A DNA stretch of 61,127 nucleotides, counting the filler. It is 13 parts of 13 records of this genome, joined end to end, with 100 filler letters (N's around TTAATTAATTAA, not from the genome) between each part and the next. Parts side by side here need not be neighbours in the genome. Positions count along the whole stretch, not along the records: positions 38,474 to 44,328 come from SRR7504441_962; 12 more parts are not named here. The stretch is one strand, 5' to 3'. Positions 3,505 through 59,889 of the stretch are shown here, one piece after another. The stretch's first letter is position 1. Each line of letters begins with the position of its first letter. The position numbers and the translations under genes were made by a program. The notes under the pieces are model-generated. The model saw only the letters and a list, made by a program, of their open reading frames with translations, had not been told where the DNA came from and made no database searches.

Positions 3505-3604
3505 NNNNNNNNNNNNNNNNNNNNNNNNNNNNNNNNNNNNNNNNNNNNTTAATTAATTAANNNNNNNNNNNNNNNNNNNNNNNNNNNNNNNNNNNNNNNN
3601 NNNN
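3505..3604. other. Artificial contig spacer (N44-TTAATTAATTAA-N44). The same spacer occurs at 7544, 11086, 16919, 20385, 24070, 27433, 34773, 38374, 44329, 51398 and 54787
   Basis: An identical 100-nt N block with a six-frame stop linker occurs 12 times, and genes are truncated at these points. Confidence 0.98.
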
Positions 3605-7525: not shown

Positions 7526-7643
7526 ATGAGGCTGATCAGGTGCNNNNNNNNNNNNNNNNNNNNNNNNNNNNNNNNNNNNNNNNNNNNTTAATTAATTAAN
7601 NNNNNNNNNNNNNNNNNNNNNNNNNNNNNNNNNNNNNNNNNNN

Positions 7644-14200: not shown

Positions 14201-16842
14201 AGCCAGAAAGTCTGGATCGAGATCACCTCCATCGTTCACACCGCGCAGATTGTTTTTGAACTGCTGCTCGGTCATCCTTTCCTTGACCTCTGGGTGATGC
14301 AGGTCTGTGTTCAGCATCATGATTGAGTACGATAATACGTATGCTGCGTCTGCGTTTTTGAAATAATGCTCCGGTTCTGGACGGTGCTCTTTGGTCACCT
14401 TGAAATACTTTTCCGAGAACTTCTCCATGATGGGATCAATCATGCATGCCTCTCCAGGGAGTCTGAAAGAATTCAGGAACATTCGGATCGCGTCAATGTA
14501 AGATGCATCTGTAAAGTTCAAGTACTCGGTGAACTCGTGAAGCACCTCTTTATTGAAGTCCTTGGACCGACCCAGGTACTGCCCAATCGAGTTCTTGGAT
14601 AGTCCTTTGAATTCGTGGAAGAAACGTGCCACATCGGGAGGGTTCATCTCGACAAACCCTTTCTCGGCAAAGTATTTAAGCCCAGATCCTGGGCTTTCGG
14701 AGAATAAGTTATGCCCTTTGACAATGATATGTTTCTGAATTCGCTCCTTCTCAAACTTCTCGGCTTCGTTCACCAGCTGAGCCACACCACAGTCAATTCA
14801 GCCACTGCGGCCAGCTCACCTCGCTCGAACCATCTTCCTCAAAATCAGCATTGAACTCCTCGTCCTCTTCAGCGTCAATGTCTATGGCCCCGTCTGCTGG
14901 CCTCAGCTCCGGCGAGACTTTAGCGAGCATGTTATCCACCCACTGGGCCATGCTGGTCGCAATCACCACCAGACTCTTGAGTGCTTCGTGCATCAGGTCG
15001 TGCTCCTACAGCCCGCTCGCATATAACCCAGCCTGGGGCTTGCCTGAGAAGCAAACAGCCCGGTGTTCTTGACGTGCACACCCTGGGCGATCCGTGAAAG
15101 AGTGTTGACCAACGCTTCGTACAGGTCATCAAATTCGAGGTCGCAGTCATAGTTCACAAACAGCTCGACCTGGAGCCAGGCTCGCGGCAAGGTAGAAGCA
15201 GGCCTGTCACCAGATTGCGTGAGTCCTTGACGAACGAGTTGATGGTCTGAAGCACAAGAAGCTTCATTGTAAATGAAGAGTTGTCGGTCTCAAGTGTCCG
15301 AAGCAGCACCGAAGAGAAGAAGATGCCCACCTCGGCCTTGAGGTTGTGCTTGAAGTGATGGAGCAGCGTCTCGAAGATTTTGATAATCAATTTGAATATC
15401 GCAGGCACCGCTGAGACAGAATTCTGACCCGTGCCCGTCAGCCCCCGTCGGGCTGGCCTGCCAAACCTGGACCAGGGACATGCAAAGGTACTGCTTGACC
15501 GCAAAGATGCACCGCTCGGATGCCTTGAACACCGGCCCGGCTGACTTGAGCAGCCCATCCAACAGTTCGAGCGACAAGATCTTCATCCGCATTGAAACGT
15601 TCTCAATTGTCACGCCTGACCCCCCGCTCGCCCCGGCACCGGTCGCTCACTCCACCTTCAAGCAGCGGCTTCATGGCCAGCTTGCACAGCGCCCGGAACA
15701 GCAGGATGGCGTCCTTCATCAGCACGTCCCCCCGCGCATCCATCTCCTTCGTGGAGCTGGACGACACCGACGACACCACCGCACTGTCGCCCCTCGCCAT
15801 CAGGTTGGCCGCGGAATCGTTCCGGTCCCGGGTCTCCTCTAGTGGCTTGAGTGCCTCCTCGCTCTCCTGCGGCGAGGCAGGCTGCAGTGTCTCCTCTGGC
15901 TGCACATCAGCCTCCTCCTTCTCTTCAGCAGGACTCCCAGAGTCCTCAGTAGTGTCATCAGGAGCGCCACTGTGCCCGTTCTGGGCCAGCCCAGCCGGCT
16001 CCTCGGACTCAGCCATGGGCATCTCCTCGGCATAGACCACCTCAGCCTCGTTTTCATCAGCTCCGTCGACAGCCCCATCTGCAGGTTGGCCTGAATCCTC
16101 GAGTGAATCTGGCTGGCTGCGTGCCGAAAAGTGCCGCTCCATGCTGTCGAATACGGCGGAGAGCATCTGGGACAGCGCGGCCCGGGCGATGGCCTGGTTG
16201 GTTGGGCTCTTGGTGGTGAGGTGGATGTGGCAGCAAGTGCGAACTGCCAGCTGCAGCTGTGTGTCATGTACCTGCACACAGGCGGGTCAGACCAGCAAGC
16301 CCGGTCGCCGGATGCTCTGCACGCGGGGAGCGCAGCCAACAAGGCGCTACAGACGCACGACACAGCAGCCACGCGCGAGAGGAGGAGGGCAGTCGCCGCA
16401 GGGGCGGATGCACCTCGCACTTCTCCGAGGTCACGGCCGTGAGCAGCGCCTGCAGCACCTGCAGCTGCACGGCGTCGTCGGTCTCGTGAGAGCACTCGCA
16501 GACCGCCTCCACCACCACATCCATCAGGGTCTTGCCGCCCCCGGCCGCCTGCATATCGTCCAGCGGCATCTTCAGGAACCCGAAGGCCATCAACTTGGAG
16601 AGGCAGTCGATCGCGATCACCATCACGCCAGGGAGCTTCGATTTGCACGCCTCCTTCAGCGGCTGAGCGCACGCCTCGGGGTCGATGTCGGGGTCAGCTT
16701 TGATCGCAGCGATAGCGGCGGTGCAGGTGGTGCGCAGCGCCTTCTGGATGGCGGTCAGCCGATTGAACATGGACTCGTCCTTCCCACATTCAGTGTAGAT
16801 CTTCTCCAGCGCGCGCAGCACCAGCTGAGCGTTGCCACTCAT
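11274..16842 (-). CDS. ARFGEF: Brefeldin A-inhibited ARF guanine nucleotide exchange factor (BIG/Sec7), multi-intron
   Basis: DCB N-terminus (PLKEACKSK...IAIDCLSKLMAFG, VQLQVLQALLTAV), HUS box (ELFVNYDCDL), Sec7 motif FRLPGEACMIDPIMEKF and YVLSYSIMMLNTDLH, HDS1-3 (ERDAFITSLSKFT, QKIVEVAHYNMDRIRIVW, DSLRQLAIKFL, LKSGW), and a C-terminal EVRRLVRDILVRVG. Confidence 0.95.
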
Positions 16843-35728: not shown

Positions 35729-38274
35729 ATGGAGGCGGTGGTGGAGGCCGCGGCAACTGCAGCGCAGCGCGCCTGTGTGCACTGCGGCAATGCAGGCAGC
35801 TCGCGGTGCGGTAGCTGCCACTCTGTCTGGTACTGCGGCAGGCGGTGCCAGAGGTCTGACTGGACCAACCACAAGACCAGCTGCAAGGCCGGCCTGCCCG
35901 ACCACCGGATCGGCACCGCGCAGCCACCCCGGCTGGGGCTGGTCGGGCTGCGCAATGTGGGCAACACGTGCTACATGAATTCAGTGCTCCAGTGTCTGTC
36001 GCACACCCCGCCGTTGACCGAGTACTTCCTGATGGGCCCGTGGCAACGCGAACTGAACAGGACAAACGTGCTGGGCTCGCAGGGGAAGCTGGCCGAGGCG
36101 TACCATCAGTTTCTGCGGCTGTGCTGGCACGGTCGGAGCCCGGTATTTGCTCCAACCAGCTTCCGGCGGGAACTGGCCGACTTCGCCCCAGAGTGCGCCC
36201 CCGCGCTGTGAAGGGGCCGAGCAGGGGCAGGTACGGCGAATTCGAGCAGCACGACGCGCACGAGCTGCTCACCCGGCTGGTGGATCGGCTGCACGAAGAT
36301 GTGAACAGGATCGTGGCGCGAGAGTCTGTGGAGGCGCCCGACTGGAACGGGCAGGTTATTTCTAATTCTGACTAGGGAGCGATGATTTAGCAGACCCGTG
36401 TGTCTGAATGGTTGGGCCAGCCGGACGCCGAGGTGGCGCGGGAGGCCTGGACGAGGCACAGGTCTGTCGGGCGCAATCGGGAGGCTGATGCGCTGCTGGG
36501 TCAGGAAGCTGAACGACTCAGTGGTAGTGGACACTATGACAGGCCTCCTCAAGTCAACTGTGCAATGCTCCGTGTGTGGCAAGGTGATGCGGGCTGCCGC
36601 ACGGCCTGAGATGTGCACCTGCAGGTGGCTATCAAGTTTGACCCGATTTGTGCGCTCTCGCTCCCTGTGTCGCCTCCTCAGGCGATGGAGGGGCGCGAAC
36701 TGACAGTGACTCTGATCACCAGACGCGCCTCACGAAAGCCCCGAAGGCAGGGCCCAAGTGCGGCCTGGAGTTAATTGGGCTGGCAGGTATTCAGTCCAAG
36801 TGCCGGGTTGTGGCAGCGCACGGGCGTTCAAAGATAAGCTGGCTGGGATGTGCCAGATTCATACCGATTGTCTGCTTCTGTGCAAGGCAATGCAATTAGA
36901 ATAATAGCTCAGTGGGGACGTCATGCTACCAGAGCTTCCGTTTTGAGTTGCCCTCCCAGGTGGCTGATGGTACGGTCAAGGCGCTATGCAACAAGGGCCA
37001 GATGCAAATATCGGATGATGACTCATGCTTGTTGGTGGCTTATGAGGTGCTTGGGCCCTGTCACTGGCCTCATGTGGGCCAATCCAGGTTATCCCTGGTA
37101 CACCCAACGCTGTAATCGTGCAGCGAGTGACTGAGCAACCCCATCGACTGGTTGGGACATATCCAGGGATGATACCAGTGCCACCTGGCCAGCAGATAAG
37201 TGAATTCAAGAGTGCAGTCGAGCAGTACTGCGACAAATTTGTCCAGGCGGGCAAGGATGGACTGGTTTTGTCGTGGGTTCAGCCATCGGGAAACATAGTT
37301 GACGCTACACGTAGTCCTGCTGGCGCGCTCTCCGAAGCCGAAGGGACTACCCCTGTGTACGACTTGCTGACTGGGCTGCGTAGTGGTAAGCTACGATTTG
37401 TCTCTGTGGATTGGAGTCATGAAAATGAGCACGAATTGGACGCGGAAGGATTGAGTGTGTGTGACGACGATATTTCTCTCAAGCATGCAGAAACCTTGCG
37501 GCGGCTCCAAAGGGTAACAACACGCATCCTGTTTTGTTTTCCTGAGGCCACTGGTTGTAGGTGGGCAACAAGGACACGATCGCACTTGCGGACTGCTTTG
37601 AGCTTTTCCAAGCCCCAGCTCTTCTGGATAAACAGAATACTTGGTACTGTCCAGAATGCAAGGAGCATGTAGAGGCGCAGCAACAGCTCCAGCTGTGGTC
37701 AGCACCAGAAGTGTTGGTGAGTATGGCAAGCAGAGTCAAAATTTGATAATGTCGCAGGTGTTGCACTTAAAGAGATTCTCATTCTCGAATCAGCTCCAGG
37801 CCGTGTTCAACCTGGGGACCAAAATCAAAAGTCTAGTCGAATTCCCTCTTGCAGAGCTCGACATTCAACCATATATGAATAATCAAGGGCTGCCTGCACA
37901 TGAGCAGCAGAGCACCCTATATGATTTGTATGCGGTATCAAATCATCTAGGCACGATGCGCTGTGGGCACTACACGGCCTATGTTAAGGGCCACGACAGC
38001 TGCTGGTATGAGTTTGATGACAACGAAGTAAGTTTGATCGACGAAGACAGGTACCATTCTCCATTCTAGGGCATTTGGCTGACTGGCTTGCAGTGTTTTA
38101 TCTCGAGATGCGTATGTCTTATTCTATCACCGGCGCAAGACCAAAGATTCCGAACATACTGCTGAAGAGACACTAAGTAGCTGCTTAGGGTTTGTGCAGT
38201 CGCCCGAGGGGTTCATCAGCCGGCAACAAGCGGAGACTAAAGCAACTGAAGAATCGGAGCCAGATATTGGATGA
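35729..38274 (+). CDS. Ubiquitin-specific protease (C19) with N-terminal MYND zinc finger, multi-intron
   Basis: MYND CVHCG...CGSCHSVWYCGRRCQRSDWTNHKTSC, Cys box GLVGLRNVGNTCYMNSVLQCL, EQHDAHELL...LHEDVN, LKSTVQCSVC, WYCPECK, LHLKRF, His box YDLYAVSNHLGTMRCGHYTAY...WYEFDD, then AYVLFY. Confidence 0.9.
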
Positions 38275-38499
38275 TAACCGAAGTCTTGCAGGGCTGTTAA
38301 AAGTGTAAAGTGTTAGGTGACCACTGTGATAGTCACGCGCAGGCCTCAGCCAATTGATTAAAAGTGTGCATTCNNNNNNNNNNNNNNNNNNNNNNNNNNN
38401 NNNNNNNNNNNNNNNNNTTAATTAATTAANNNNNNNNNNNNNNNNNNNNNNNNNNNNNNNNNNNNNNNNNNNNCCCCCCCCCCCCCCCCCCCCCCCCCC

Positions 38500-39174: not shown

Positions 39175-40399
39175 TCAGTCCTGTAGTCCTGTAGTCGGTA
39201 GACTTAGAGCCAAGTCTATGTCGTCCTGGTTCAGGTATTCCTCAAGCGCCTCAAGGCATTCCGTTTCATTCCTTTCAAACGTTTTCCGTTTCATTCCTGT
39301 CTTCCTTCCTGCTTTGTCACTCTCTGTCACAACCATGTATTCAGCTGAGCCACCTCGGAGCTCGAAGATCTTGCAAGACGAATGCTGTTCGTCTAGCGTA
39401 AACAAATCATACCTCTCCTCAACAGCTGTCGTTTTGAGGACCTTTATCGCCCTCCCCCCCTGGTGCTTCCACCTGTACAGTCATGTAAGTTTTGCCTGTT
39501 TGGATAGGAGCGTACTTCCTACGTGGGAATGATGACGACGAGACCCGGCAGTGATCTTCAAGCGAACGATATTTACCCCAACCTGGTACACACAGTGCTC
39601 TGAACCCATTCGGCAACACGTGTGTCGGCCGGCGATCGCCAGCATCGGTCCATGACTTGACAAGATGTACGCCGCAAACTGACTCGTTGGGTCCAGCAGC
39701 CTTTATCAACAATTCTCGTTTGAGCAGCAGCTGCTCTATTGCCTTGGCATTGGCCTGATTTATGTGCCAGGCACCGGTCGGTGGCGGTGCAGCCTGTGCG
39801 CAGATACTCTGCACCTGCGAGTGCTCGTGCTCTCGCTCTAATGCCTGCCAGTTGATCAATAGGAACGCGCGGAGCGTCACCTCGTTCACTGTATCATTGC
39901 GTTTGAATACCAAATTCTCCTCGCTTCCTCCTGGGGCCTTACAGTCGTACGCATTTAGCTTTACCAAGCGCCAGTGCGTCCGGTACGGCTCCGTCCCTGC
40001 TTGCTCTCGTAGCAACTCGGGGTCCGTGAGCTTCCGGATCAGCTCATAGCACCGCTGCCTTCCTTCTGCTGTGCAGTTGTGAGACCACCGCGTGTTTGTC
40101 ATTACGCATCCGGATCTTGTGTGGAAACCGGCAATGGCATTGAAGAAGGGCAGGTAACCGCCAGGGACTGTGCGGGCTCGTTGATCCGCCCCATCTCTGA
40201 TCAGGAGCTCGACGCTCCGCTCGTTGAGCTTGTGCCACGCCTCGTGCAATGCGGTGCTGCCTTTCTGGTTGGCGGACTGCACGAGCTCTTCGAGCCTTCC
40301 ACATTCGCGCGCCCGCGCCAGCAGGCTTTCCAGCAGCGCAGGGCTTTCGACCGCGGCCCTCAGAGCTTCGGCGGACAGGCTGCCGCTATCGCCAGCCAT
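39175..40399 (-). CDS. Ankyrin-repeat protein with unknown C-terminal domain, 1 intron
   Basis: Ankyrin motif NQKGSTALHEAWHKLNERSVELLIRDGAD...GGYLPFFNA. A GT-AG intron at 39473-39515 (branch ACTTAC) joins ORF 39419..40405 in frame to ORF 39175..39405 (...FPRRK|WKHQGGRAIKVLKT...). Confidence 0.7.
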
Positions 40400-40521: not shown

Positions 40522-43500
40522 ATGGAGCCCTCGAAGCCAGACAACTGCACGCAGGCCGCGGGTTTGAGCTGGGTGGCGGCACAGCCCACCCCGGTGAGGC
40601 CCAGCAAGGCTTACGCGGAAATATGATGCGCTGTGGCCGCAGGAAAAAAGAGCCCAGTTATTGTGTCTGGCTAAGGATGTCTGGCTCCAGCACAATGTTC
40701 AACGCCTAGCTGCTTCCGGCACGGTGCCAGACCACAGTGACCCCGAGGCTCTCCGCGAGTCACTGTGGGAGGCCCTTGTTGCGGCAACTTGGGAGCGGGC
40801 GGCAGCTTGGGAGCGGGTCCCAACAGAGCTGGATGTCGCCGCAATGGTCCTGGACAGGCTCCTCGGCGACGATGAAGAGGAAGCCGAGGCGGACAGCCAA
40901 ACTGTCAGCGAAGAGCAACCAGCCGCAGCAGCAGCATACATTTTCAGGAGGAAGCAGATTCTGCAGGATCTTAAAGCAGCCATGGACAATGCCTCTTCTC
41001 CAGAAGAGAGAGAAGCCCAATTTCGCAAGCTCGTCGCCGATTTCTTTGAATCCGCAGTCGACATGCCTCTCGTCAGTTCTGAGGGGGCTGCAGCCCGTCA
41101 ACTTCAGGCTGCACAGCAAGAGCTGTCTGTGTCACTCTCCAGCCTAGCGGCTAAGTACGGGTACTCCCATGTTCTAGAAGAGTCAATTATGAAACGAGGC
41201 TCAGACATGGGCGGCCCAGGGTCTGGACTTGGGAATGGACCGCTGGATAGCATCACGTGTGCCAACTCCACGCCTTGCTTACAAGGTGGCACCTCTCACA
41301 GAGGGACATTGTGTGAGAAGCGAGGGACCCTGGTATGCGCAAGGTGCCACCTCGTGAAATACTGCTGCAAGAGTTGCCAGAAGGACCACTACGCGATGCA
41401 CAAGGCGGATTGCAGATCAAGGTATGCAGAGGATGCCTGGCTGGTGGGCAGTAAATACAATGACTGCGGCGGGGACAATGAAACAGGCATGTCATCATTC
41501 GATCCAGAGTTTCATTCAATGGCCATCCACTTTCCGCTATCGTTGCCACACAGCTGCACTGCGTGCCTTGCTGCATGTGGCGATCTCAGTGATATTGTTG
41601 CAACAATTCTGAGCATCCCTGATGAATACACTGGGGAGATCGTGCTGCATCTGAATCATGAGGTGCCATCTGTTGCTTTTTGCAATCTCCTGACGCTTCT
41701 AGGAATGGGCATGCTTGGAGAACTATGCTGCGATTTGGTGACACAGCTGTGGTACTCTGTTGCGCTGACCAGCGAGCAAATGGTTTGCATAGGAAAGATG
41801 TTCGGAGATCTAGTCAACTCGTGTTCTGGCGAGCCGAGGAAGGAACCATTATCAGTCCGCCTGCCACAATTGCCTGACGTCTCGCTTAAAGTCGACCTTG
41901 AGGCGCAGCACTGGTATCGATGTATTGCCGACATGGAAAAATCCATGAACAGCCGAGACATGGAAAAATGCATGGACAGCCGTCGCAAGTACATGCTTAG
42001 CCAGCAGGGCAGAGAGCATGCAGTTAAGATGCTTAAATCTCTCAGCCCATATCAACGTGTTTCTTGGGACAACTTTGCACAGCTCGGGATGCTCCTCCCA
42101 CTGGGTGCATTGAATGCGCACCACAATGCGCAGAACCCGTATTTGTTTGATGTGGACAACGACAAATGGCGGCCAACAAGCCAGCTCGACCCTCTTCAAT
42201 GCTGGTCGAAGTCTGAGGTAATTGCAAGGGGAACGGCTCACGGAGTGCCCCGCAATGACATTTATGGTGCATTGTTCTTCCTCGTCCATGACAAGTTATT
42301 ACACTGTATTCAGAAGCTACAGCGTCATCCGATTCAGATTAGCGTTACTTCATGCAATCCAGAAGCTTTCATCAACCATCTGCGTGATGCCAGGATTCCA
42401 TTCGACTTCATCTCAGGAGTCACAAATGTCAAGTGCGACGCAGATGAGGATGAAGACCTGAGCGCTCTCGTACCACAGGCACCCAGCGAAGAAGAGACGA
42501 AGCGACTCAAGTACATAGAGGCTCGGGCAGCTATGGAACCACCTGATGTGCTTGCTGTATGCTATTTAGCCAGGCATGCCACCAATGGAAATGGCTCTTG
42601 GATCGAAAAAGGCGTCACCAGTGGCATCCCGGCATGCCTCGCAATGAACGGTTGGCATCTACTTTGCCAACCAAGCCATGATAAAGCCTTTGATGCTCTG
42701 ATGCAGTTGCGGCAGGCAAAGGTTGCGCTAGACTCAGAGGGCCTGCTTATGTGGGGACTTGTCATGGAGAATGTACACAACAACGCAGCAGACAACGACT
42801 CGCAAGCATGGAAATGCTACTATCGATCTGCCTGCCTGGGCAACCCTGCAGCCATGTTCAATATCGCAGGTATCTTGGCAGATCGTGGGGAACACGAAGA
42901 TGCAGTTGCATGGTGGAAGAGAGCCGAAGTGCATGGGCCCTCCTTGTTTGAGCTGTATCGTTGCTACCGGGATGGAATTGGTTGTCGTCAGGACAACTTG
43001 AAGGCGTGCAAATACTTACAGCAAGCCGCAGAAAAGAAATACAAGTCTGCCTGTTCAGAATTGGGCAAATGGTATAGCTCTGGCTGGGGGAACGTCCTGC
43101 GAAAGGACCCGGACAAAGAGTTGCATTGGTTCAAGGAAGCTATAGCAGCAGAGATGTGCGCTCCTCATCAGCTGATCCAAGTGTACCGGCTGCGCAATTT
43201 TCTTGCTTCCAATACACCAAATTGGTGGAAATTCATGAAGTCTATTCTTGAGCTCATGCCACGCGATGATGAATGCGACGATGCTATTTCTTGTGAAGCA
43301 TTGAGCACGTTTGATGTGTCCATATTTGCAGTTCAAGGAGCACAGGAGTTCATACAGAAAGTCTGCCCTGATTGTGACGGTGACGTGCTGGATGTGGCTG
43401 CACCTGATTTGGATCCAGAGCTCCGATTTCTTGAGACAGCAGAAGCGCTAGCTCTGACATCAGATGAAGTACAATCGCTGGAGCAATTAGTCAAGGAAAT

Positions 43501-44328
43501 AGAAGAAGCTTTGCTAGAAAGTCCGCTTATCGCTTCTGTGGAAGTTTGCGGTTCTTATGGAAAGAACACTGCAGTGAGTGGGTGCGCCGATCTTGACCTC
43601 GTGGCAACAGCTATAAAATGTTTCGAGAGTGACCTTTATGTATCACTGCAACAGCATGCGGCCTCCTTGCTCACAGATAAGCTCAAGGTAAAGATCATCT
43701 ACAAGCCACTGGCTGTATCTTTTACGTACAGGGATGTTGAAATAGACATAGTGCTAGCGAGTCCGGAGATCGAGCCCATATCACAATGCTTTCTGCCACC
43801 AAGACCTCGATTTTTTCGTCGACCATCACTTTCAGTTCAAGAATGCGCGTTTCTTCGTCAACAATCGCCTCTGTTTCGAGCAGTTGTGCGTTTGTTGAAG
43901 TGCTGGCGAGCATGTGCAAAGGATTGGCCTCATGGTTCCAAGCCGCGGTCCTTCTTTCTCGAACTGATTGCGCTCGCAGCAGTCGAGCAGCTGGATGCAG
44001 CCGGACTGACTGAGCAGGGGACTCAGAACGGCTTTGTTTCAGCACTTGAGGTCCTCTTGCGGGTGATCACTGGTGACCTGAAGCTGTACTGGACCCACAG
44101 CTACCCCAAATACGCAATCCAGTTTGAGCATTATGATGGTCCAATCGCAATCGATCCCCTGGACCCGAGCAATAATGTTGCTGGTTCGCTTCAGATCCGA
44201 GACTGGAATGCACTTACTCAGCTAGCCAAAGAGACGCTTTCCATGATCAATCAACTCAATCCTGATCTGCCCGCCGTCAATGCGAGCTCGGTTCCCCGAG
44301 CCCAAAGTGCAGGGCCTCAGTATACATT
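40522..44328 (+). CDS. MYND finger - DUF4470-like - SEL1 repeats - OAS-like (2'-5' oligoadenylate synthetase / CD-NTase) nucleotidyltransferase; 3'-truncated
   Basis: Probable ATG 40522 plus GT-AG intron 40594-40642 joins the 1239-codon ORF. MYND about 41258-41413, DUF4470-like about 41555-42440, SEL1 about 42800-43150, OAS NTase plus OAS1_C about 43410-44250 (GSYGKNT...ADLDLV, VEIDIVLA, VVRLLKCW, PRSFFLELI, LYWTHSY, PIAIDPLDPSNNVA). No stop before the contig end. Confidence 0.85.
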
Positions 44329-45367: not shown

Positions 45368-47095
45368 TCAACTCAGCGCCTGGCTCCTCCTCAACTGATA
45401 CCGCTGAAGTGACTGCTTCAGCTGGGCCTTGATCAGCCGTTGCTCCGTCGTGAGGCCCCCAAGCGCTTGGAGGAGCCCAGCTCGGGCCTGCTCGGAGGTC
45501 TTGTCAGACCCAAGCAACGGCCCAAGCCACGGTGCACAGCTCTCGGCCAACTGTCCGTCAGAGACCAGCTGGGCGAGTCTGGTCAGCAGCTCCGACGCTG
45601 TCTGGTCGGTCAGGCGGTCGACCGCTTGCTCGGGAGACCATCTGTTGAGCGCTCGGACCAACTGGAGATCGTCACCGGCTGCGAGCAGCTGCTGGCAGTC
45701 TACCTCCATGGTGCGCTGCGTGAGCTGATCCATCGAAAGCTTGCCCGACGCTGCCCTGCCTCCGAGCAGCTCTGGTGATTGCTCATCGCGGATGCAGTCC
45801 TCGTGGGAGCTGGGCGCACTGGTCGAAGACGGCCGGGTCTCAGGCCGATGGCTGCTGTATAGCTCGGCTGTGGACTTGAAGAACTTGGGATTTGGCCGGA
45901 GTCGCGGGTGCTTTGCCCTGGCCGAACTGCTGCGGGACTCCATCGACAGCCCACCGAGCCGGCTGGGCTGCTTTGCAGTCGGCCTTTCAATTGGCTCGGC
46001 GGCACGGTAAACTGTCGGGCAGAAACTGGAGGCCGGCCGGCGTATTGCAAATGGCAGATCCCAGTCCAGCCCTCCGGGGGAGCCACCTGGCACACCGCGC
46101 CCGGGCGCTGATCCTAGCTGAGCTGCGGGCTTGGGAGGCTCTACAGTGATCTCACTGTTGTCCTGATCCGTGGGGTTTGCGCTCGGCTCCAACTGCTCAA
46201 AGACCTGGAGCGCCTGGAGAGCCGCATCCCGCACTGGCCGCGCCGGGTCCCGCCGGCAGCGCTGCAGCCCGGGCACTATTCGGGGCAAGAGTGGCTGGAT
46301 CCCGACGCGCTGCCGCAGCCCGAGAGTGGTCAACGCTTCGACGGCCGCGGCGCGGGTCTGCCACTCGTTCTTGGACAATCCTTCCAGAACCGCGTCCACC
46401 AGCTCTTCCCTATGCGGCGTGAGTGTCGCTGTTGGCATGCTCCCGAACATCTCACCTATTGCGCCAACCAGCCCAGGCACCGCCTCAGCAGCCGACTGTT
46501 CGATGGCTTGGAGCAGCCGAGGCTTGAATTTATCAAACTCGGCCGGATCGGCCACCCGGCGTGGGGCCTGCTGGACCACCGCTCGGATGGCCAGGCTGGC
46601 CGCATGCTGCAAGTCGGCTGATGGCTGCACAAGCGCCGTGAATAGCGCCTTGAACACGCGACTCAGCGGGGTTTTGCCTTCCGGGGCAGCCATGGGCACC
46701 CAGGCGGCCAGCTGCCCAAACGCCGCCGCCACCGCCTCGCGCACGGTGTGGTCTGGGTCTTTGAGCCGCAGCCCCAGATTGGCCACCAGGCGGGCCCCAA
46801 AGTCGCTCAGACGATCCCGGAGCGCCCAACATGCGCTGCCGATGAGCCCAGCCACGGCCCGGCGCGAGTAGGCGGTCTGCTTGTGCCGGTGATCGAGCAG
46901 CAGCGAGAGGAACTCGGCGGTCCTGTCTGGGGCCAGGGTGCCGGCGATGGCCTCGACCTCCTGCACTCCTGTGGGCAGAGTGTCCAAGTCCTCGAGCTTG
47001 TGCAGCCCGGCGAACAGCGCCTCCCGGAGCACCAGCAGCTGGCCGTCTGACCGCACCCGCTTGTGCAGCCGCGACTGCTTCCGGTCGTGCGGCAT
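45368..47095 (-). CDS. TORTIFOLIA1/SPIRAL2-like HEAT-repeat microtubule-associated protein
   Basis: N-terminal LHKLEDLDT...RLKDPDHTVREA HEAT block, LSKNEWQTRAAAVEAL and CRRDPARPVRDA, then a disordered linker and C-terminal LLAAGDDLQLVRAL...DRLTDQTASELL...CAPWL. Both ends parallel plant TOR1/SPR2. Confidence 0.7.
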   Translation of the reverse strand: MPHDRKQSRLHKRVRSDGQLLVLREALFAGLHKLEDLDTLPTGVQEVEAIAGTLAPDRTAEFLSLLLDHRHKQTAYSRRAVAGLIGSACWALRDRLSDFGARLVANLGLRLKDPDHTVREAVAAAFGQLAAWVPMAAPEGKTPLSRVFKALFTALVQPSADLQHAASLAIRAVVQQAPRRVADPAEFDKFKPRLLQAIEQSAAEAVPGLVGAIGEMFGSMPTATLTPHREELVDAVLEGLSKNEWQTRAAAVEALTTLGLRQRVGIQPLLPRIVPGLQRCRRDPARPVRDAALQALQVFEQLEPSANPTDQDNSEITVEPPKPAAQLGSAPGRGVPGGSPGGLDWDLPFAIRRPASSFCPTVYRAAEPIERPTAKQPSRLGGLSMESRSSSARAKHPRLRPNPKFFKSTAELYSSHRPETRPSSTSAPSSHEDCIRDEQSPELLGGRAASGKLSMDQLTQRTMEVDCQQLLAAGDDLQLVRALNRWSPEQAVDRLTDQTASELLTRLAQLVSDGQLAESCAPWLGPLLGSDKTSEQARAGLLQALGGLTTEQRLIKAQLKQSLQRYQLRRSQALS

Positions 47096-47155
47096 AGCCC
47101 AGTGCTTGTTGATTCCCGGGCAGAACTAAGAATAGAATTATTGAATTATTAGTGG

Positions 47156-48085: not shown

Positions 48086-50236
48086 CTACAGCACCGCGTC
48101 GCGGGTCAGCCTGAACGCTTCGCAGAACTCGTTCATATCTACTTCGCCCGAGTGGTCCAGATCCAACAACTCGAACAACTCTGAAGCGTCGAGCGAAGTC
48201 TCTGAGACTTTGTTCACGGCCTCTATCCCCTTTGAGAACTCTTCAAAGTTGATCTTGCCGTCGTTATCCTCGTCCCAGTAGTCGAAGGTCGACTTGAGCA
48301 GACCAAACTTATCATACATGGCCGACAGCTCCGCCTGCTGTGCCGGCGCTGCCTGTTGCCTGACTGTGTACCTACTCAGAAACTTTTCATAGTCAACGGG
48401 CAGCCCCTCCCGCCGCGTGGGCTCGCCCATCAACGAGGGTAGCACGGCAGCCCAGTTGATGTCCAGATGAAGCGCTTGCTTGAGCACGTCAGCCACTACC
48501 TTCTCCGACAGGCTTCCGGTCTTGCCTGTGTCTGCTTGCTGGAACGCTCTGAGCAGCCTGTAATGCCTCCGGAAGAGCATATCGGCCAGCCGCAGGCGAT
48601 TATTCCCCACCAGTTTGGAATCAGGCGGCTTGACCGTCGATCTGAACCTGAAAACCTTGGGCTTTTGGTCTAGCGAGGTGAACGTGAGGACTGCGCCTTG
48701 GTTATCACCGTCAGAGTAATTTGAGGCCGAGAAAATCGTGTACAAGGAGTACTTGGTTCTACTGCTGCTCCCATGCACCGTGTCCTTGACCGGCAGGTAC
48801 TCGCATCCGTCCTCTATGCACTCGTGCGACCGAACCAGTGTGTTGCAGCCTATTTGCTGCAGCCATCGGAGTGTCACGTCGGGTCCGAATTCGACCCCGG
48901 AGCCGCGCTCGCTCGCATATACGCCGTTCATCTGGTCCGGAGTCGGGTCTGACCACAACATCTCCTCGATGAGAGTGTCGTATATGGTGGGTGTCTTTGT
49001 CTGCACTATCACTGTCTGGTACTTGGTCCGCTCGATCTCATTGATCCTATCAAGCGTGGTGCCAGGGTCCGAGAACAGCCCGCCATGCACCACGAATATG
49101 CCCTTGCCGGCGCACTGGCTGCCGCCGCCCACGATAGCGCACAGCGGCAGGTGCTGAAACATCTTGATGATCAAAGCAAACATCCGCTTGGAGTACTTCT
49201 TGGTGCATTCTTTCATAAACCCGTACGACTGGTTCACCAGCAAATCCTCGTGGTTGCCCCGGTTCAGGTGCACATAGTCCGGGTGCAGCACCTTATATGC
49301 CAGTAAGATCAGCAACACCTCCACCCCGTCCTTGCCTCGGTCCACGAAATCACCATTGAACAGAATCCGATTCTGCGCTGACGGGGTCCCAATCTCTTCG
49401 AAGATGCAGTGCAGGTCTGATAAGCTCCCGTGCAAGTCGCCCACGATGGTCAGCCGGGACTCGGGCGTCGGCGGCTCGAGCCTCACTGCGTTAGGCTGTT
49501 GCTTGAACACTGCAGTCGCCTCCTTCACAACAATCTCTGCATACTTGGCAGCCAGCGGCATTCCGTTCATAAAGCTTCGGCGGAGGTCGGTCGCAGTGCC
49601 CGGGGCGAGAGGGACAGTTATGGTTATCCCGTGGCCCTCGCGCTGGATGTCTATATCAACGTTCATCGTATACTCGGCTGCTGGGCCCATCGAGGCTTCG
49701 TCGCTCTGGTTCACATCGGCCTTATCCAGCTCCATGAACAGCTTGGCCACCTGCCCGCGGGCTCAGCGCTGCCACCGCCCAGGGCGCCTTGAGTCGGTCT
49801 TCCTCGTCCCGTTGGTCTAACTGATTCCACAGCCTCCACTCGTTCCCCAGATTCTGGCCAGTGGAACGCACAAATATCTGTCCTGCACTCGCCCCCACCC
49901 CCCGCCTCCGCCCACCTTGTAGCCGTGCACGAACTCGTTCAAATCCACCCGCTGGTTCCTGGGCCACCGCTCCAGCCGGTGCCCCCGGCTAGCGCACCGG
50001 TCCTGGTCCAGCACATGGAAAAGGGCTTCAATGTCTTGATCCCGCATCCCAAAGTCGGCCTGCCCTGCCCGTCAGGCAGCCCGGCCAGCCGGCCACCAGT
50101 CCCGCCATGAACTCGACCAGGTTTAAAGAGCCCTGGTCCTCGGTGTCCATCTCCTGCGGCCGGCTCGTCCGGGGCAAAAGCCGGACTGGGAGACCTTGAA
50201 GATCGCATACGCCACCTCGGCGTCGCTGGTCGGCAT
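48086..50236 (-). CDS. PPEF: PPEF/rdgC-like serine/threonine phosphatase with N- and C-terminal EF-hands
   Basis: PPP motifs GDLHG, GDFVDRG, LNRGNHE, VHGGL, LWSDP, VRSHE and IFSASNY. PPEF-type WRLWNQLDQRDEEDRLK. C-terminal EF loops DTGKTGSLS, DEDNDGKINFEEF and DLDHSGEVDMNEF. Five short 5' introns, including GC-AG 49751-49787. Confidence 0.88.
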
Positions 50237-54786: not shown

Positions 54787-55382
54787 NNNNNNNNNNNNNN
54801 NNNNNNNNNNNNNNNNNNNNNNNNNNNNNNTTAATTAATTAANNNNNNNNNNNNNNNNNNNNNNNNNNNNNNNNNNNNNNNNNNNNGGAGTCGACGAAGA
54901 AAGGTCGAAAAAATGTGGGAAGGAAATTATCTACCGTACCGAGGAGGGATACGTGAATATGTGGGGGAAGAAAGTTGAGACTCGCACGTATGTCGCAGGA
55001 TGTCAGTTACCTATGGGGAGACGCCTCCTGGGCAGCGGGCGCGAAGAGCGCGAAGAGCGCGAGCGCGAAGTGCGCGCGCGCGAAGAAGTGCCAATATACA
55101 CTTGTGAGTGTAACCGTGACCCTCATTCGTGGCATTCACGCTACAACCAAGGCGGTTGTGGCGTGTTCTCCGGGTGCTGATAGCGCAAGCCTATAGCAAG
55201 ACTTTTACAAAGAGAAAACCGAACACAGACCTCGGCGAGGTGATGTTTCGACAACACACCGTTCACACCGTTTGGACGGTGTTGGCGTGCAGCCGTGCAC
55301 GGGACTCGGGTTTGTGGCTAGATTGGGTACAATCGTGTACTACATATAGGGTGCAAATCCGTGCAATACAAACTCTTGATCA

Positions 55383-55449: not shown

Positions 55450-58002
55450 TTAATGGTGAGCATGTGGATATTGCACAGGAGCCGGCTGTACTACACAGTC
55501 GTGTCCACGGATTGAGGCTGAGAGCTGTAGTGTACCATCTTCAAGGAGCGCGTGGTGGGACGACTCCAACTCAGAACCATCGGAACACTCGACACTCGAG
55601 CTCACACCAGCACCACCAATGCCGTGAAGGCTCCACACCACGTGTTCACGCGCGGCTTCGTAATTTGAATGCACCACCTTGAAGCGGAGCAATAGCCGCC
55701 CATCCTGACAAATCGCAAACCCTGCTGCAGCCCGCCAGTGCTCGCCTAGCTCCGCATACCTCATGGTCTGGCCGTCGTCGTCGTACAGCCCAGACCACTC
55801 AAACCGTTCGTCGGGTACCAGAGCGGCGCACGGAGTGGTGGCGGGCGGAACCCACACGCGGACACCAAGGCTCACCGGCTCTCCCGGCGAGCTGTGGAAG
55901 AAGAAGACCGGCTTGCCGCCCTTTACAAACAGCGCCGCGGTCATGACTGGGGTGGGTACTTGGGCCCATGTCTTGGGCTGGTACCTGGTGTTGCCGGTGC
56001 TGTTGAACCACGCGTGCCAGGAGCTAGCGGTTCCAGGGAAGTACACTCGTCGGCTGGTGCTCTGCGGGTCCGTCATGCCAGCAGGCGCAACCATCAGCGC
56101 ATCGCCGAGCAGAAACTGGTCGTCAATCCGCCAGCTGTCGCGCTCGTCAGGAGAGTCGACCACCAGCGCTCGAGCCAGGGGGATACCGGTCCGCGACTGG
56201 GCCTCGAATCCCGAATACAAGTACGCCTGGAGCCCGTCACGCAGGTCGTAATGAACCTGAAACATGGCCAGCCACTGCTCGGAGCAGTTGGCTGCGCCAG
56301 GCCCGCCTGAAGGCCAGAGAGTGGTCCCGTCGTGCGAGTCCCAGGCGTTGTACTGGGCCTGCGGGCTGAGGAACATCAGCTGGGTCCGGCGGGCAAAGTC
56401 CGCCCACTCCTTGGGGGTGTGATCGGGTCCGCAGGTGGCATGCCGCATCTCCGGTGCCCAGATCAGACCGCTGAACCCCGAGTTGACTACCCCACGCACA
56501 TACGTGGCATAATCGTACCCGTCGGAGTAGCTATTGGTAGGATAAGCCTGGCTGCCGGCGTACCCGCCGCGGCTCTGGAGCCAGGTCCGCTTGCCAAGGC
56601 TGGCAAACATCTCGTGGTACAGTCTCTGCATGATATAGCCTTGTATGTTGTGGAACTGATGTCCATAGAACCCCGAAGGGAAGACGGTGCTATCGTTGAA
56701 ACCAATGTCCACGTCCACGTCGTCCTCGTCCAGCTTGAACCCCATCGCCCCCGAGGCAATCGCGTGCGACAGCTGGTACTGCTTCCAGAGCTGCTGGCAG
56801 CGCGGCAGGGTCAGGTCCGAGAACTGCGACGGTGCCGGCTCGGTTAGCTGCGAGGGTGCCCCATGGGCTAGGCAGTCGGCCTTGGCCAGGCTCGTGTAGA
56901 AAGGGCCCTTCTGGTCCAGAATCGGGTGCTCCCATAGAATCATCTGGGTCGGGGCGATCGCCTTGATCATCGCGGGCACATCCGGGAACTTGTGCTGGTC
57001 CCAGTTGTATTGGGCGCCTTGCCAAGCTGGCTCGAGCACCGCGCGGTCGGGCCGGATCCCGCGCGCTGCAAACTGGCCGACCACGGTCTCGATGAAGCTG
57101 CTGTTGTACCCTGCTTCGGCCGGATCATATTTCATGCCCATTGCCCAGCGCGGCGGGAGAGACAGCCGGCCGCCCACCACCTCAGCAAACTGGCCAATCA
57201 CTGCCTTTGGTGTCGGCCCACTGAACAGGAAGTAGTCGTACACTGGGTCCGGGCTGGACACCACCAACCGGGACGAGTCGTTGTGCCCAATGTCAAACGC
57301 CGAGTAGCCGTGCGTGTTCAGGAAGAAACCGTGGGCGAGCGATCTGTTGGTGACCCGATCGACCGCTAGGCTGATGTATGAGGGCGAGGGCGCGTGCGAC
57401 GGGCCGCTGTCGAGCGTGCGCGAGAAGGTGGCGATGAACTTGGTCGAGCCGACGGCGCTCAGCCCTGCGGTGACGGTTTGGCCAAACCCGTAGATGTGCT
57501 CGTCGGTGACGCGGCCCGAGCTGTTGGACCGCAGCGACCGGAACCCGCGGAGACAGCCGCCGCTCGAGGCCACCGTTGTCCCGATCCCGGGGGCGAGCCC
57601 GGCCCAGCCCGGCGGGTCGCAGCTGGCGCCGGTGGCTGGGCGCGGCGGCTCGAGGTCGGCGCTCACCAGCACTCCGTTCAGGCTGAGTGCCACTGTGGGC
57701 TGGAGCCGGCTCACGTTGAGGCTCCAGCCGGGGCGTGAGAGGATTGTCCATTGGCTGGTGTTGGCCGCCAGCCCGAACTCAGCCCCGGGGGCCAGCGCGC
57801 TTTGGTTGATGAAGCCCTGGTACCGCCGGAAGTCCGGACTGGCCCCCGGCGGGACCACGGTCACCCGGGCCGCGCTGCCATCGCCCCCGGCCAGCGCGAC
57901 GGTCATGCGGCTGCCGTCCGGGTAAGGCCCAAACTCGATGCTGGCCGAGGCGCAGCCCAGCAGCAAGGCCGCCGCCAGCGTCCGCGGGAGCAGCGCAGCC
58001 AT
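55450..58002 (-). CDS. Secreted glycoside hydrolase family 31
   Basis: Signal peptide, EHIYGFGQ, SHAPSPSYIS, DYFLFSGPTPKAVI, LPPRWAMG, WDQHKFPD, nucleophile region GFKLDEDD, RGGYAGSQAY...YSD, GIPLARAL, DQFLLGDALMVAP and RRVYFP. Intronless. Confidence 0.9.
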   Translation of the reverse strand: MAALLPRTLAAALLLGCASASIEFGPYPDGSRMTVALAGGDGSAARVTVVPPGASPDFRRYQGFINQSALAPGAEFGLAANTSQWTILSRPGWSLNVSRLQPTVALSLNGVLVSADLEPPRPATGASCDPPGWAGLAPGIGTTVASSGGCLRGFRSLRSNSSGRVTDEHIYGFGQTVTAGLSAVGSTKFIATFSRTLDSGPSHAPSPSYISLAVDRVTNRSLAHGFFLNTHGYSAFDIGHNDSSRLVVSSPDPVYDYFLFSGPTPKAVIGQFAEVVGGRLSLPPRWAMGMKYDPAEAGYNSSFIETVVGQFAARGIRPDRAVLEPAWQGAQYNWDQHKFPDVPAMIKAIAPTQMILWEHPILDQKGPFYTSLAKADCLAHGAPSQLTEPAPSQFSDLTLPRCQQLWKQYQLSHAIASGAMGFKLDEDDVDVDIGFNDSTVFPSGFYGHQFHNIQGYIMQRLYHEMFASLGKRTWLQSRGGYAGSQAYPTNSYSDGYDYATYVRGVVNSGFSGLIWAPEMRHATCGPDHTPKEWADFARRTQLMFLSPQAQYNAWDSHDGTTLWPSGGPGAANCSEQWLAMFQVHYDLRDGLQAYLYSGFEAQSRTGIPLARALVVDSPDERDSWRIDDQFLLGDALMVAPAGMTDPQSTSRRVYFPGTASSWHAWFNSTGNTRYQPKTWAQVPTPVMTAALFVKGGKPVFFFHSSPGEPVSLGVRVWVPPATTPCAALVPDERFEWSGLYDDDGQTMRYAELGEHWRAAAGFAICQDGRLLLRFKVVHSNYEAAREHVVWSLHGIGGAGVSSSVECSDGSELESSHHALLEDGTLQLSASIRGHDCVVQPAPVQYPHAHH

Positions 58003-58113
58003 CTCCTCTGCCCAAGCGGAGAAGCGGCCTCTCTCTCGACCAACGGCAATCTATAAAAAGACATCTCGCCGAGGCAGCGTGGAGCGTGGTGGCTCTCGAC
58101 TGAGCGGCTTGGG

Positions 58114-59889
58114 ATGGCGGCGCTGGACCGGGAGACGCTGCTCAAGGGGCTCGGGCGGATCACCAAGTCGGCGGCCGGGAACCAGATCGTTTACACCGAG
58201 CTCTGCCTGGAGGAACGCCAGCTGAGCGAGCTGGAGCTGCTCGGAAAATACCCGCACCTGTCGCACCTGGCGCTATCCAACAACAAGATCCGCGATCTGG
58301 CCCCGCTGGCCGGGCTGCCGCACCTGCTCACCCTGGACCTCTCGCACAACCAGCTCGAGAGCGCGCTCGATTTCGATCCGCCGGCCAACCTGCACCGAGC
58401 CGACCTGTCGTACAACAAGATCAGCCAGCTCTCCGGGCTGGCCGGGCACCTGCAGCTGGCCACGCTGGTGCTGAGCAACAACCAGATCACCAGCCTAGCC
58501 CCGCTGGCCGGCCTCTCCCAGCTCCGCTATCTCGACGCCTCGTTCAACCAGCTGGATGGGCTGGAGGGGCTGAGCGACCAGCCGCTGATCGAACTGCACC
58601 TGAGCAACAACCGGCTGGCCAGCCTGGACGGGGTGCAGCGGCTGGCCCAGCTCCAGGTGATCACAGTCGAGCACAACCAGCTGAACTCGCTCGAGCCGCT
58701 CCGCGAGGCCAAGGGGCTGTACGCTGTGTCCGCAGCTCACAACAAACTCGAGCTCGAGCAGGCAGTCGGCCCGCTCCAGGAGCTGAGCAGTCTGCGGCAC
58801 CTGTCGCTCGCCGGCAACCCACTGGCCACAGGGCTGGTGCTCGACCAGACGCTGGCCGGGGCGATGGTTGGGCTGCCGGACATGCGGCGAGCGTGCTACC
58901 CTGACGCTGTGCTGTACAAGTTGCTCAGGCTGGAGACGCTGGACCAGCGGCCGGTGCAGCCGGAGGACAAGGTGCTGGCGGCCAACCTGGCAGGGGTGGA
59001 CCAGGACGCGCACGAGGCGTGTCACGAAAAGTATTTCCCCAAGGGCCAGGGCGGGATCAGAGACAAGGCGCTGGTGCTCGCGCGGCTGATGTACCCGAGT
59101 GCGTACAAGCCGGGCAGGATGGTCTTCCCGGACGTCTGGGTGCACCAGCAGCTCGAGCGCTGCCTGCAGGCCCAGTACCAGTGTGTGTGCCACCATGGCA
59201 GTTGGCAGGCTGACGATGCCCAGACTGATTTGAGCGAGGTGTGTGTGGAGCTGGTGCTGCAGGAGCCTGGGCCCACTCATCTGGTGCTCATGCTCGGGCA
59301 GCACCAGAGCTGCAACGCCGGCACCCAGAAGCTCAAGTCCTCGATCGCAGTGCAGCGCCGCCAGCCGAGGCAGGCCCGGGTGCGACGGCTGTTTGGCGCT
59401 CTAGACAAGGACAGCTCCGGGGCGATCGACAAGGCCGAGCTGGGGTTCGCCGACCGGAATGGCCGGTTCTTTGGCAAACTGGACGGGGACAAGGACGGGC
59501 GGGTGACTGTAGACGAGCTGGTGAGCTACTTTGAGGGCTCAGTCGAGCAGCGTGGGGAGGCGGCCGTCGACGCGTTCATTGGGCTGATGGAGCAGGGCTG
59601 CACGGGGGAGGCGGCCGGGCCGATGCCTGTGGAGAGTTTCCTGGAGTCGAGTCCGAGCATGCTGATTGGGACGGTGGAGGGATGGCTCAAGCCTGAGAGC
59701 GACGCCAGCATGTCGTACCAGGTGGTGGCGCAGGCTGTGCTGCAGGGCGCTGCGGTGGAGGCCGCGGGCGAGGGGTTCTTCCTTTGGGTATTCGGGAGCA
59801 GCAGCTTCACACTGGGAGGCCTCCAGTCCACTAGTTGCCAGCAAATGGTGGATCATTTCTCCCCAAGGCTTCGACAAGACATCTCCTAA
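58114..59889 (+). CDS. LRGUK-like axonemal leucine-rich repeat protein with EF-hand pair and no guanylate kinase domain
   Basis: SDS22-type LRRs with LRGUK-like signatures (LDFDPPANLHRADLSYNKIS; LLRLETLDQRPVQPEDKV.A.N). EF loops DKDSSGAIDKAEL and DGDKDGRVTVDEL. Confidence 0.75.
   Translation: MAALDRETLLKGLGRITKSAAGNQIVYTELCLEERQLSELELLGKYPHLSHLALSNNKIRDLAPLAGLPHLLTLDLSHNQLESALDFDPPANLHRADLSYNKISQLSGLAGHLQLATLVLSNNQITSLAPLAGLSQLRYLDASFNQLDGLEGLSDQPLIELHLSNNRLASLDGVQRLAQLQVITVEHNQLNSLEPLREAKGLYAVSAAHNKLELEQAVGPLQELSSLRHLSLAGNPLATGLVLDQTLAGAMVGLPDMRRACYPDAVLYKLLRLETLDQRPVQPEDKVLAANLAGVDQDAHEACHEKYFPKGQGGIRDKALVLARLMYPSAYKPGRMVFPDVWVHQQLERCLQAQYQCVCHHGSWQADDAQTDLSEVCVELVLQEPGPTHLVLMLGQHQSCNAGTQKLKSSIAVQRRQPRQARVRRLFGALDKDSSGAIDKAELGFADRNGRFFGKLDGDKDGRVTVDELVSYFEGSVEQRGEAAVDAFIGLMEQGCTGEAAGPMPVESFLESSPSMLIGTVEGWLKPESDASMSYQVVAQAVLQGAAVEAAGEGFFLWVFGSSSFTLGGLQSTSCQQMVDHFSPRLRQDIS

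Follow-up and report, generated by a model that had tools for sequence, protein, structure and literature searches.

In vertebrates, an OAS protein is a single OAS unit, a tandem array of such units or a unit with a ubiquitin-like tail. Beyond vertebrates, OAS-like proteins have been recorded in 8 of 12 eukaryotic supergroups and described as the commonest eukaryotic CD-NTases, protists included, in one survey, whose main text makes no mention of MYND, TPR or Sel1 (Culbertson and Levin 2023, PMC10732462). Sponge OAS enzymes are reported to be active without double-stranded RNA (dsRNA) and to make 2-5A and 3-5A, and four sponges are reported to lack RNase L (PMC6307210). Hall et al. (2021, PMC7882143) described in the freshwater sponge Ephydatia muelleri an “Oas1-like” gene that combines TPR and beta-helix regions with three MYND fingers and is down-regulated when green-algal symbionts are present. 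Here, a gene of related architecture was analyzed within a window of 61,127 nucleotides (the whole stretch of DNA under study), where it lies on the contig at 38474..44328 as an open frame on the + strand (40598..44328, stop-to-stop, 1243 codons read, 3′ end cut by the contig end). Sequence comparison identifies it as a new, diverged member of an uncharacterized sponge-type OAS fusion family. It is rather probable that the locus represents approximately the 5′ two-thirds of a giant multidomain gene combining MYND, DUF4470, Sel1/TPR and a catalytic OAS-superfamily nucleotidyltransferase (NTase), for which we infer the product, the regulation and the 3′ part.

The C-terminal ~300 residues of the encoded protein are a predicted OAS-superfamily (CD-NTase) domain with its catalytic residues intact. 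All six OAS motifs that an original prediction, made from the letters alone, had placed within 43410-44250 were recovered by string matching on the + strand and in the order given: CGSYGKNTAVSGCADLDLV (43547-43603), VEIDIVLA (43736-43759), SVQECAFLRQQSPLFRAVVRLLKCW (43832-43906), PRSFFLELI (43943-43969), LKLYWTHSY (44078-44104) and PIAIDPLDPSNNVA (44141-44182). The NTase core of the domain (43427..43759, + strand) contains G985-S986, K989, the D998-x-D1000 pair (D998-L-D1000) and D1050, and the OAS1_C helical domain (43847..44278, + strand, residues 1084-1227) contains K1101, S1118, E1122 and D1186-P-x-x-P-x-x-N1193. The catalytic triad that had been called intact (D998, D1000 and D1050) is thus kept, together with the G-S loop. 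OAS1_C (PF10421) was detected in Pfam with an E-value of 8.6e-12; the score, with a cut-off of 19.9, was 45.5 bits, and 47.9 bits for the domain alone. When the OAS domain was searched against solved structures, all six matches at E <= 0.01 were OAS1, OAS2 or OASL, with phmmer E-values of 1.3e-13 for OAS2 and 9.4e-10 for OAS1. The segment G-S-Y-G-K-N-T...A-D-L-D-L-V aligned to residues 54-79 of porcine OAS1 (G-S-S-G-K-G-T...S-D-A-D-L-V), with D998 and D1000 matching its D-A-D in the pairwise alignment. A 40-row alignment was assembled from the window domain and 39 representatives of moderate length among the 110 found by HMMER (see below), and 37 of these rows carry OAS1_C. Columns conserved in at least 90% of the 40 rows were G985, S986, K989, T991, D1000, D1050, K1101, S1118, E1122, D1186 and N1193; P1187 and P1190 were also nearly invariant, and W1103 was invariant across all 40 OAS-like proteins. 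D998, D1000 and D1050 were each at least 90% conserved in an 11-row alignment of the family itself.

Structure prediction gave the same assignment. An AlphaFold2 model of the OAS domain, generated from the 40-row alignment, reached a pLDDT of 90.5 and a pTM of 0.90, and the comparison by AlphaFold and Foldseek that had been proposed for this protein returned an OAS fold. The top five Foldseek matches in the PDB were porcine/human OAS1 and OASL (E 1.9e-12 to 1.6e-11, TM 0.60-0.62), followed by NF45/NF90, OAS3, OAS2 and bacterial CdnC (6u7b and 6p8v among the matches), with CCA-adding enzymes and Cid1 ranked lower. Searching solved structures with the 40-row profile produced E-values of 2.5e-87 for OAS2, 8e-56 for OAS1, 3.5e-43 for OASL, 8e-36 for CdnC, 1.4e-11 for CCA and 4e-11 for NF45, values that describe the group and not the window protein alone, because the profile includes other OAS proteins. 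Ranking by hidden Markov model (HMM) favored OAS among the families compared. CBASS cyclase models matched nearly end-to-end but weakly (PADLOC Cyclase, E 2.4e-12; NCBIfam CBASS_cyclase_a, E 1.6e-10), and the bacterial CBASS oligonucleotide cyclases are distant relatives only. Membership in the cGAS/cGLR group was rejected, as Pfam gave no Mab21 (PF03281) match at E <= 1. Membership among the DZF proteins (NF45/NF90) was also rejected, since Pfam gave no DZF match, the catalytic residues are kept and the likeness is confined to the fold. CCA and PAP/TUT membership was rejected by sequence in Pfam, profile and solved-structure searches. At the sequence level, therefore, the domain did not group with NF45/DZF, Nrap, CCA or PAP/TUT proteins, the non-signaling families raised as alternatives in the original prediction.

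The MYND, DUF4470-like and SEL1 regions reported upstream were likewise borne out by Pfam and by solved structures, in the same uninterrupted frame as the OAS domain. The MYND zinc finger (41312..41413, + strand, residues 239-272) matched Pfam zf-MYND at 27.5 bits (cut-off 22.7) over profile positions 4-39 of 39. It is followed by the DUF4470 core (41558..41764, + strand, residues 321-389; Pfam 26.2 bits, cut-off 25), around which a family-conserved region reaches approximately residue 620 in the family alignment. Around four Sel1/TPR-type repeats (42779..43243, + strand, residues ~728-882) were located by sequence search against solved structures, where the Sel1-repeat proteins 6ok3 (E 2.5e-13, up to four stretches), 6ork and 4bwr matched residues ~707-882. 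An AlphaFold2 model of the N-terminal region (residues 225-700) was poor (pLDDT 53, pTM 0.50), and Foldseek found no match for it at E <= 0.001 among 153 at E <= 10. An Atlas search with the whole protein produced no usable match. Elsewhere in the window, on another contig, a MYND finger stretch (35774-35941, + strand) showed 28-42% identity to MYND fingers of the sponge family.

Close relatives of the window protein were confined to one family. A word-indexed search with the OAS region returned 11 proteins at 58-63% identity, encoded on contigs of 0.3-1.1 Mb that have nine different lengths. An exhaustive HMMER search, run over 1.84 billion representatives, gave 110 proteins with E <= 0.001, of which only three reached E <= 1e-30, namely two family members (60% and 58% identity) and an animal multi-OAS protein with ubiquitin domains (Carcharodon carcharias, 33%). 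More distant relatives, at ~25-37%, included proteins from Amoebozoa and from metagenomes as well as an OAS3-like protein of an echinoderm. Every relative above 37% identity in the OAS domain belonged to one multi-copy family, the named members of which come from E. muelleri, and the N-terminal region, used as a query, retrieved a protein named by its source as E. muelleri. The 90% cluster of this named protein contains KAL5481216.1, KAL5481217.1 and the EukProt model Em0009g17a (P0132, 2655 residues), which resembles two tandem copies merged. The order MYND, DUF4470, Sel1/TPR and OAS in one polypeptide is common to the family and the window protein, with 50-63% identity over ~1100 residues. 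The same collinear order was obtained by BLASTP against P0132, and tblastn placed residues 3-1120 of family member P0003 collinearly on 41135..44323 at 51% identity; together with residues 32-1201 of P0004, the alignment covers 40877..44323. In a quick IQ-TREE phylogeny (LG+C20+F+G4) of 53 OAS domains, all taken from OAS-like matches, the window domain and 12 family rows formed a single clade (SH-aLRT 100) on a long stem (1.29). End branches of the 12 family rows, which include the named E. muelleri protein, measured up to 0.15, as against 0.52 for the window row, which arises at a poorly resolved base. Four sponge copies (P0005, P0008, P0124 and P0132) also carry a SAP-like segment of ~50 residues (ARMET_C and RNF34-like models) between DUF4470 and Sel1, where the window copy is gapped after residue 631.

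The original prediction had regarded this architecture as undescribed, which does not hold: the same family exists in E. muelleri, and the multidomain “Oas1-like” gene is in print (PMC7882143). That published gene resembles P0014 and P0132 in architecture, the one feature by which they are likened. Protist OAS enzymes and the fused architecture have thus both been recorded already, in the supergroup survey (PMC10732462) and in the sponge paper (PMC7882143). In literature searches, among the titles listed for OAS combined with MYND, only that of the sponge paper was relevant, no paper on DUF4470 concerned OAS, and no biochemical study of this OAS fusion family was found.

Full-length relatives extend 800-1200 residues past the end of the window protein and contain TPR, beta-helix and two MYND regions there. 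One of them, P0014 (2428 residues), comprises MYND, DUF4470, Sel1/TPR, OAS1_C, TPR, a right-handed beta-helix (Beta_helix, NosD) and two MYND, giving three MYND in total. No recognizable effector follows the OAS domain in these relatives; TPR, beta-helix and MYND take its place. The window frame is open without a stop through the last base of its contig (44328) and on into an artificial linker, and the C-terminus was therefore correctly described as cut by the contig end. Because the family alignment extends to the last residues before that point, including Y343 of the domain, which is invariant, it is very probable that the window gene runs on beyond it. Through this truncation the C-terminal half of the sponge proteins is probably missing from the window copy, and tblastn of four family members found no copy of that half (TPR, beta-helix, MYND) elsewhere in the window.

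The kinship with sponges raises the question of whose gene this is. On the other contigs, long uninterrupted frames encode a Sec7/BIG-type ARF-GEF (11957-14794, − strand), a TORTIFOLIA1-like HEAT protein (45368-47122, − strand), an EF-hand protein phosphatase (48086-49759, − strand), a GH31 glycosidase (55450-58047, − strand) and a protein with leucine-rich repeats (LRR) and EF-hands (58057-59886, + strand). An M16 peptidase is encoded as well, and three eukaryotic frames of one contig are closely spaced. Among 908 matches to the Sec7/BIG frame, even the best (fungi, plants, Amoebozoa, Rhodelphis and one crustacean) reached no more than 31-38% identity, which argues against an animal host, although the search covered only proteins of 1655-4725 residues and shorter close relatives could be missed. 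As full-length proteins showed at most 38% identity to its ARF-GEF, the host may belong to a poorly sampled lineage.

It is nevertheless conceivable, if unlikely, that the contig was mis-binned and derives from a sponge or another animal, in which case the gene would simply be another member of the sponge family and not a protist gene. This would fit the restriction of close relatives (above 37% identity in the OAS domain) to a family with named members from E. muelleri. It would also fit the base composition of the OAS-like gene (40598-44326), as its GC content at third codon positions (GC3), 0.53, is below that of every other long frame compared (13 frames, 0.62-0.86); weak codon bias, foreign origin or mis-binning are all possible causes. 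Conversely, the divergent neighbor gene, which starts within ~450 bp, has a GC3 of 0.64 like the remaining window, and the tetranucleotide profile of the OAS contig fits the other 12 contigs (mean r 0.70) as well as those fit one another (0.49-0.74). The frame is also unbroken for 3.7 kb, the Sec7/BIG frame on its separate contig shows just 31-38% identity to all that was found among proteins of 1655-4725 residues, animals included, and short identical pieces of the DNA occur in aquatic, marine and seawater metagenome DNA runs from three studies, with small shares (0.18, 0.06 and 0.05). A compact, GC-rich, non-animal planktonic eukaryote with a copy related to the sponge family is most likely the host, and a protist is plausible. 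A non-animal host combined with kinship to the sponge family would mean either that the gene was transferred or that the family is old and very patchily distributed. As a separate observation, the contig at 1-3504 is a tetranucleotide outlier (mean r 0.49, against 0.65-0.74 elsewhere) and may derive from another organism.

Four of the sequencing runs yielded 11 short contig pieces, and the 10 listed measure 87-306 bases. None of these pieces reaches 44328 or spans the gene, so that they provide neither an extension nor independent full-length support. One environmental contig, from run X1, differs from 41606-41800 at 15 of 195 bases while other X1 pieces are identical or nearly so, which points to a related strain, or to a paralogue, in that water. 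Searches for related loci gave 21 and 255 pattern matches in metagenome_contigs and 42 in viral_contigs, with none confirmed in either.

With the family and probable host in view, the activity of the OAS domain can be weighed. The G-S loop and acidic triad are kept at ~40% divergence, which points to selection on catalysis and favors a working NTase over an inert module; the window OAS domain is thus apparently active. An active enzyme need not make a messenger, and it could transfer nucleotides to the 3′ or 2′ end of an RNA, to a small metabolite or to a protein, a substrate that the repeats would recruit. Its Pol-beta core is common to CCA-adding and terminal uridylyl transferases, and matches to such enzymes were obtained both by structure (CCA, E 5.7e-9; Cid1, E 2.7e-8) and by profile (CCA, E 1.4e-11). 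No 2-5A receptor is known outside vertebrates, and four sponges are reported to have no RNase L (PMC6307210). However, all six sequence matches among solved structures were OAS proteins, the OAS-specific C-terminal domain is present in the window protein, and sponge OAS are reported to make 2-5A and 3-5A (PMC6307210), so that a transferase of this other kind seems quite improbable. A catalytically silent OAS domain, serving for binding or as a scaffold as in OASL or NF45/NF90 and leaving the protein to work through its interaction repeats only, is less probable still: OASL (4xq7) and NF45/NF90 do rank among the best structural matches and interaction modules dominate the protein, but the G-S loop and the three acidic residues have been retained, at 90% or more in the 11-row alignment, in the face of that divergence. 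The idea that assembly joined unrelated pieces into the long frame, or that this frame is open by chance, is close to refuted, for even if the source is a fragmented metagenome-type assembly in which no environmental piece covers the whole gene, independently assembled sponge proteins show the same collinear domain order at 50-51% identity over ~1100 residues, and four Pfam families and the Sel1 matches share one frame.

Following the analogy with known OAS enzymes, the OAS domain would polymerize ATP into 2′-5′-linked (possibly also 3′-5′) oligoadenylates or a related small oligonucleotide. Its activity or location would be set by ligands or partner proteins on the flanking repeat modules, rather than through a basic dsRNA-binding surface, and the missing 3′ part would resemble that of the sponge proteins (TPR, beta-helix and two MYND). 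Regulation by a bound protein or glycan is favored here, by analogy, because protein- or ligand-binding modules (MYND, Sel1/TPR and, in the relatives, a pectate-lyase-like beta-helix) flank the enzyme and because CdnC is activated by a partner; CdnC with its HORMA proteins offers a precedent for protein-regulated relatives (10.1101/694695). The immune-sensor role and the activation through SEL1/MYND put forward in the original prediction are likewise what we infer. A basic dsRNA groove seems doubtful since the OAS core is acidic, with a pI of 5.0 (25 K+R versus 34 D+E) against a median pI of 8.2 across the 40 OAS-like domains used for comparison. This may be taken as a weak hint against a groove of the vertebrate type, although the argument is crude, as 15 of the 40 comparison domains also lie below pI 7.

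Several points weigh against the reading of the locus as a large gene with a messenger-producing OAS enzyme. The C-terminal half is assumed from relatives, the window gene being truncated. The tree contained OAS-like rows without cGLR, DZF or bacterial CD-NTase outgroups, and the placement in the OAS superfamily consequently rests on HMM scores and not on a rooted phylogeny. NF45/NF90, which are catalytically inert DZF proteins, also gave a good structural match (E 1.6e-10, TM 0.56), so that the fold alone is no proof of activity, and CBASS_cyclase_a reached 40.6 bits against a cut-off of 200. The first Cys pair of the MYND finger is atypical (C-A-N-S, residues 221-224) and lies upstream of the Pfam match. 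Of the HMMER models proposed for checking, OAS1_C, zf-MYND and DUF4470 exceeded their cut-offs; SMODS (19.2-21.4 bits, with 19.2 for the whole protein) and Sel1 (one repeat at 26.7 bits, cut-off 30.7) fell below theirs. The Sel1 region is nonetheless considered real despite its marginal Pfam score, because solved Sel1-repeat proteins match it. Finally, the sequencing runs listed with matching pieces included no RNA run.

The surroundings of the gene add few further clues. The 13 contigs that make up the window (3.3-7.2 kb each) are joined by N44-TTAATTAATTAA-N44 linkers at 3505-3604, 7544-7643, and so on to 54787-54886, and adjacency across them is meaningless because separate contigs were joined artificially. 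The start given for the gene in the original prediction (40522) needs correcting, as the ATG there lies in a different frame that stops after 34 codons; the first in-frame ATG, taken as the minimal start, is at 40844..40846 (+ strand). A link between the ATG at 40522 and the long frame would require a hypothetical short intron, for which 27 GT..AG combinations fit, one example being 49 bases at 40594..40642. Upstream, a divergent gene of 326 codons (39419..40399, − strand) carries one or two ankyrin repeats near its N-terminus. It matched the ankyrin-1/2 chimera 4rlv over residues 38-91 (E 5.7e-11), Pfam Ank_2 reached only E 0.023, and the remainder of the protein had no Pfam match. Between its start and the candidate starts of the OAS-like gene lie ~120-450 bp. 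As a candidate analogue of a 2-5A receptor this neighbor was rejected, because its ankyrin repeats number no more than two and neither a nuclease nor a kinase domain accompanies them. An Rfam search of the whole window gave no matches.

OAS-like enzymes are widespread beyond vertebrates, and this family offers concrete candidates for inputs other than dsRNA, because apparently active OAS domains are fused to Sel1/TPR, MYND and, in the relatives, beta-helix modules. A diverged copy in a seemingly non-animal planktonic eukaryote would further suggest that immune-type modules possibly move between eukaryotes. A bolder scenario can be drawn, which we regard as a long shot: a whole OAS receptor gene (MYND, DUF4470, Sel1, OAS, TPR and beta-helix) moved between a planktonic protist and freshwater sponges, with protein- or carbohydrate-binding repeats replacing the dsRNA input, and the sponge family expanded and responds to algal symbionts. 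If true, this would mean a pattern-recognition receptor that carries its own second-messenger synthase and is common to several eukaryotic supergroups. Until the gene has been completed, its host identified and a product demonstrated, the finding is of limited practical use.

Compared with known systems, the N-terminal module of the window protein resembles free-standing fungal MYND-DUF4470 proteins of ~570-630 residues (an Atlas lead with a score of 0.89), and its DUF4470 region has an Atlas lead to DNAAF3 (DUF4470 + DUF4471; score 0.79). Unlike the window protein, neither of these has a nucleotidyltransferase. Bacterial clade C CdnC (CBASS with HORMA and TRIP13) is alike over nearly the full length of the enzyme (6p80, profile E 8.1e-36; 6u7b, Foldseek E 3.0e-10) and sets a precedent in which a partner protein, and not nucleic acid, switches the enzyme on, but it is a stand-alone enzyme in an operon with its effector and has no OAS1_C signature. 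Vertebrate OAS1, OAS2, OAS3 and OASL have the same fold, OAS1_C domain and G-S, D-x-D and D residues as the window domain, with ~21-22% identity in structural alignment. In contrast to these, the window OAS domain has an acidic core and is embedded in MYND, DUF4470 and Sel1 modules, with no interferon or RNase L context. The best functional analogy is provided by the classical sponge OAS of Geodia cydonium, Tedania ignis and Amphimedon queenslandica, which are non-vertebrate and are reported to be independent of dsRNA and to make both 2′-5′ and 3′-5′ links (PMC6307210). These are described as plain OAS proteins, and it is by description alone that they are set apart from the window family, which forms a separate long-stemmed clade with large fused modules. 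Closest of all are the E. muelleri Oas1-like proteins (Em0009g17a, KAL5481216.1, KAL5481217.1 and P0002-P0014), which share domain order, clade and catalytic residues with the window protein. The sponge copies are nearly alike and carry the SAP-like insert, whereas the window copy is diverged, has no insert and comes from an apparently non-animal host.

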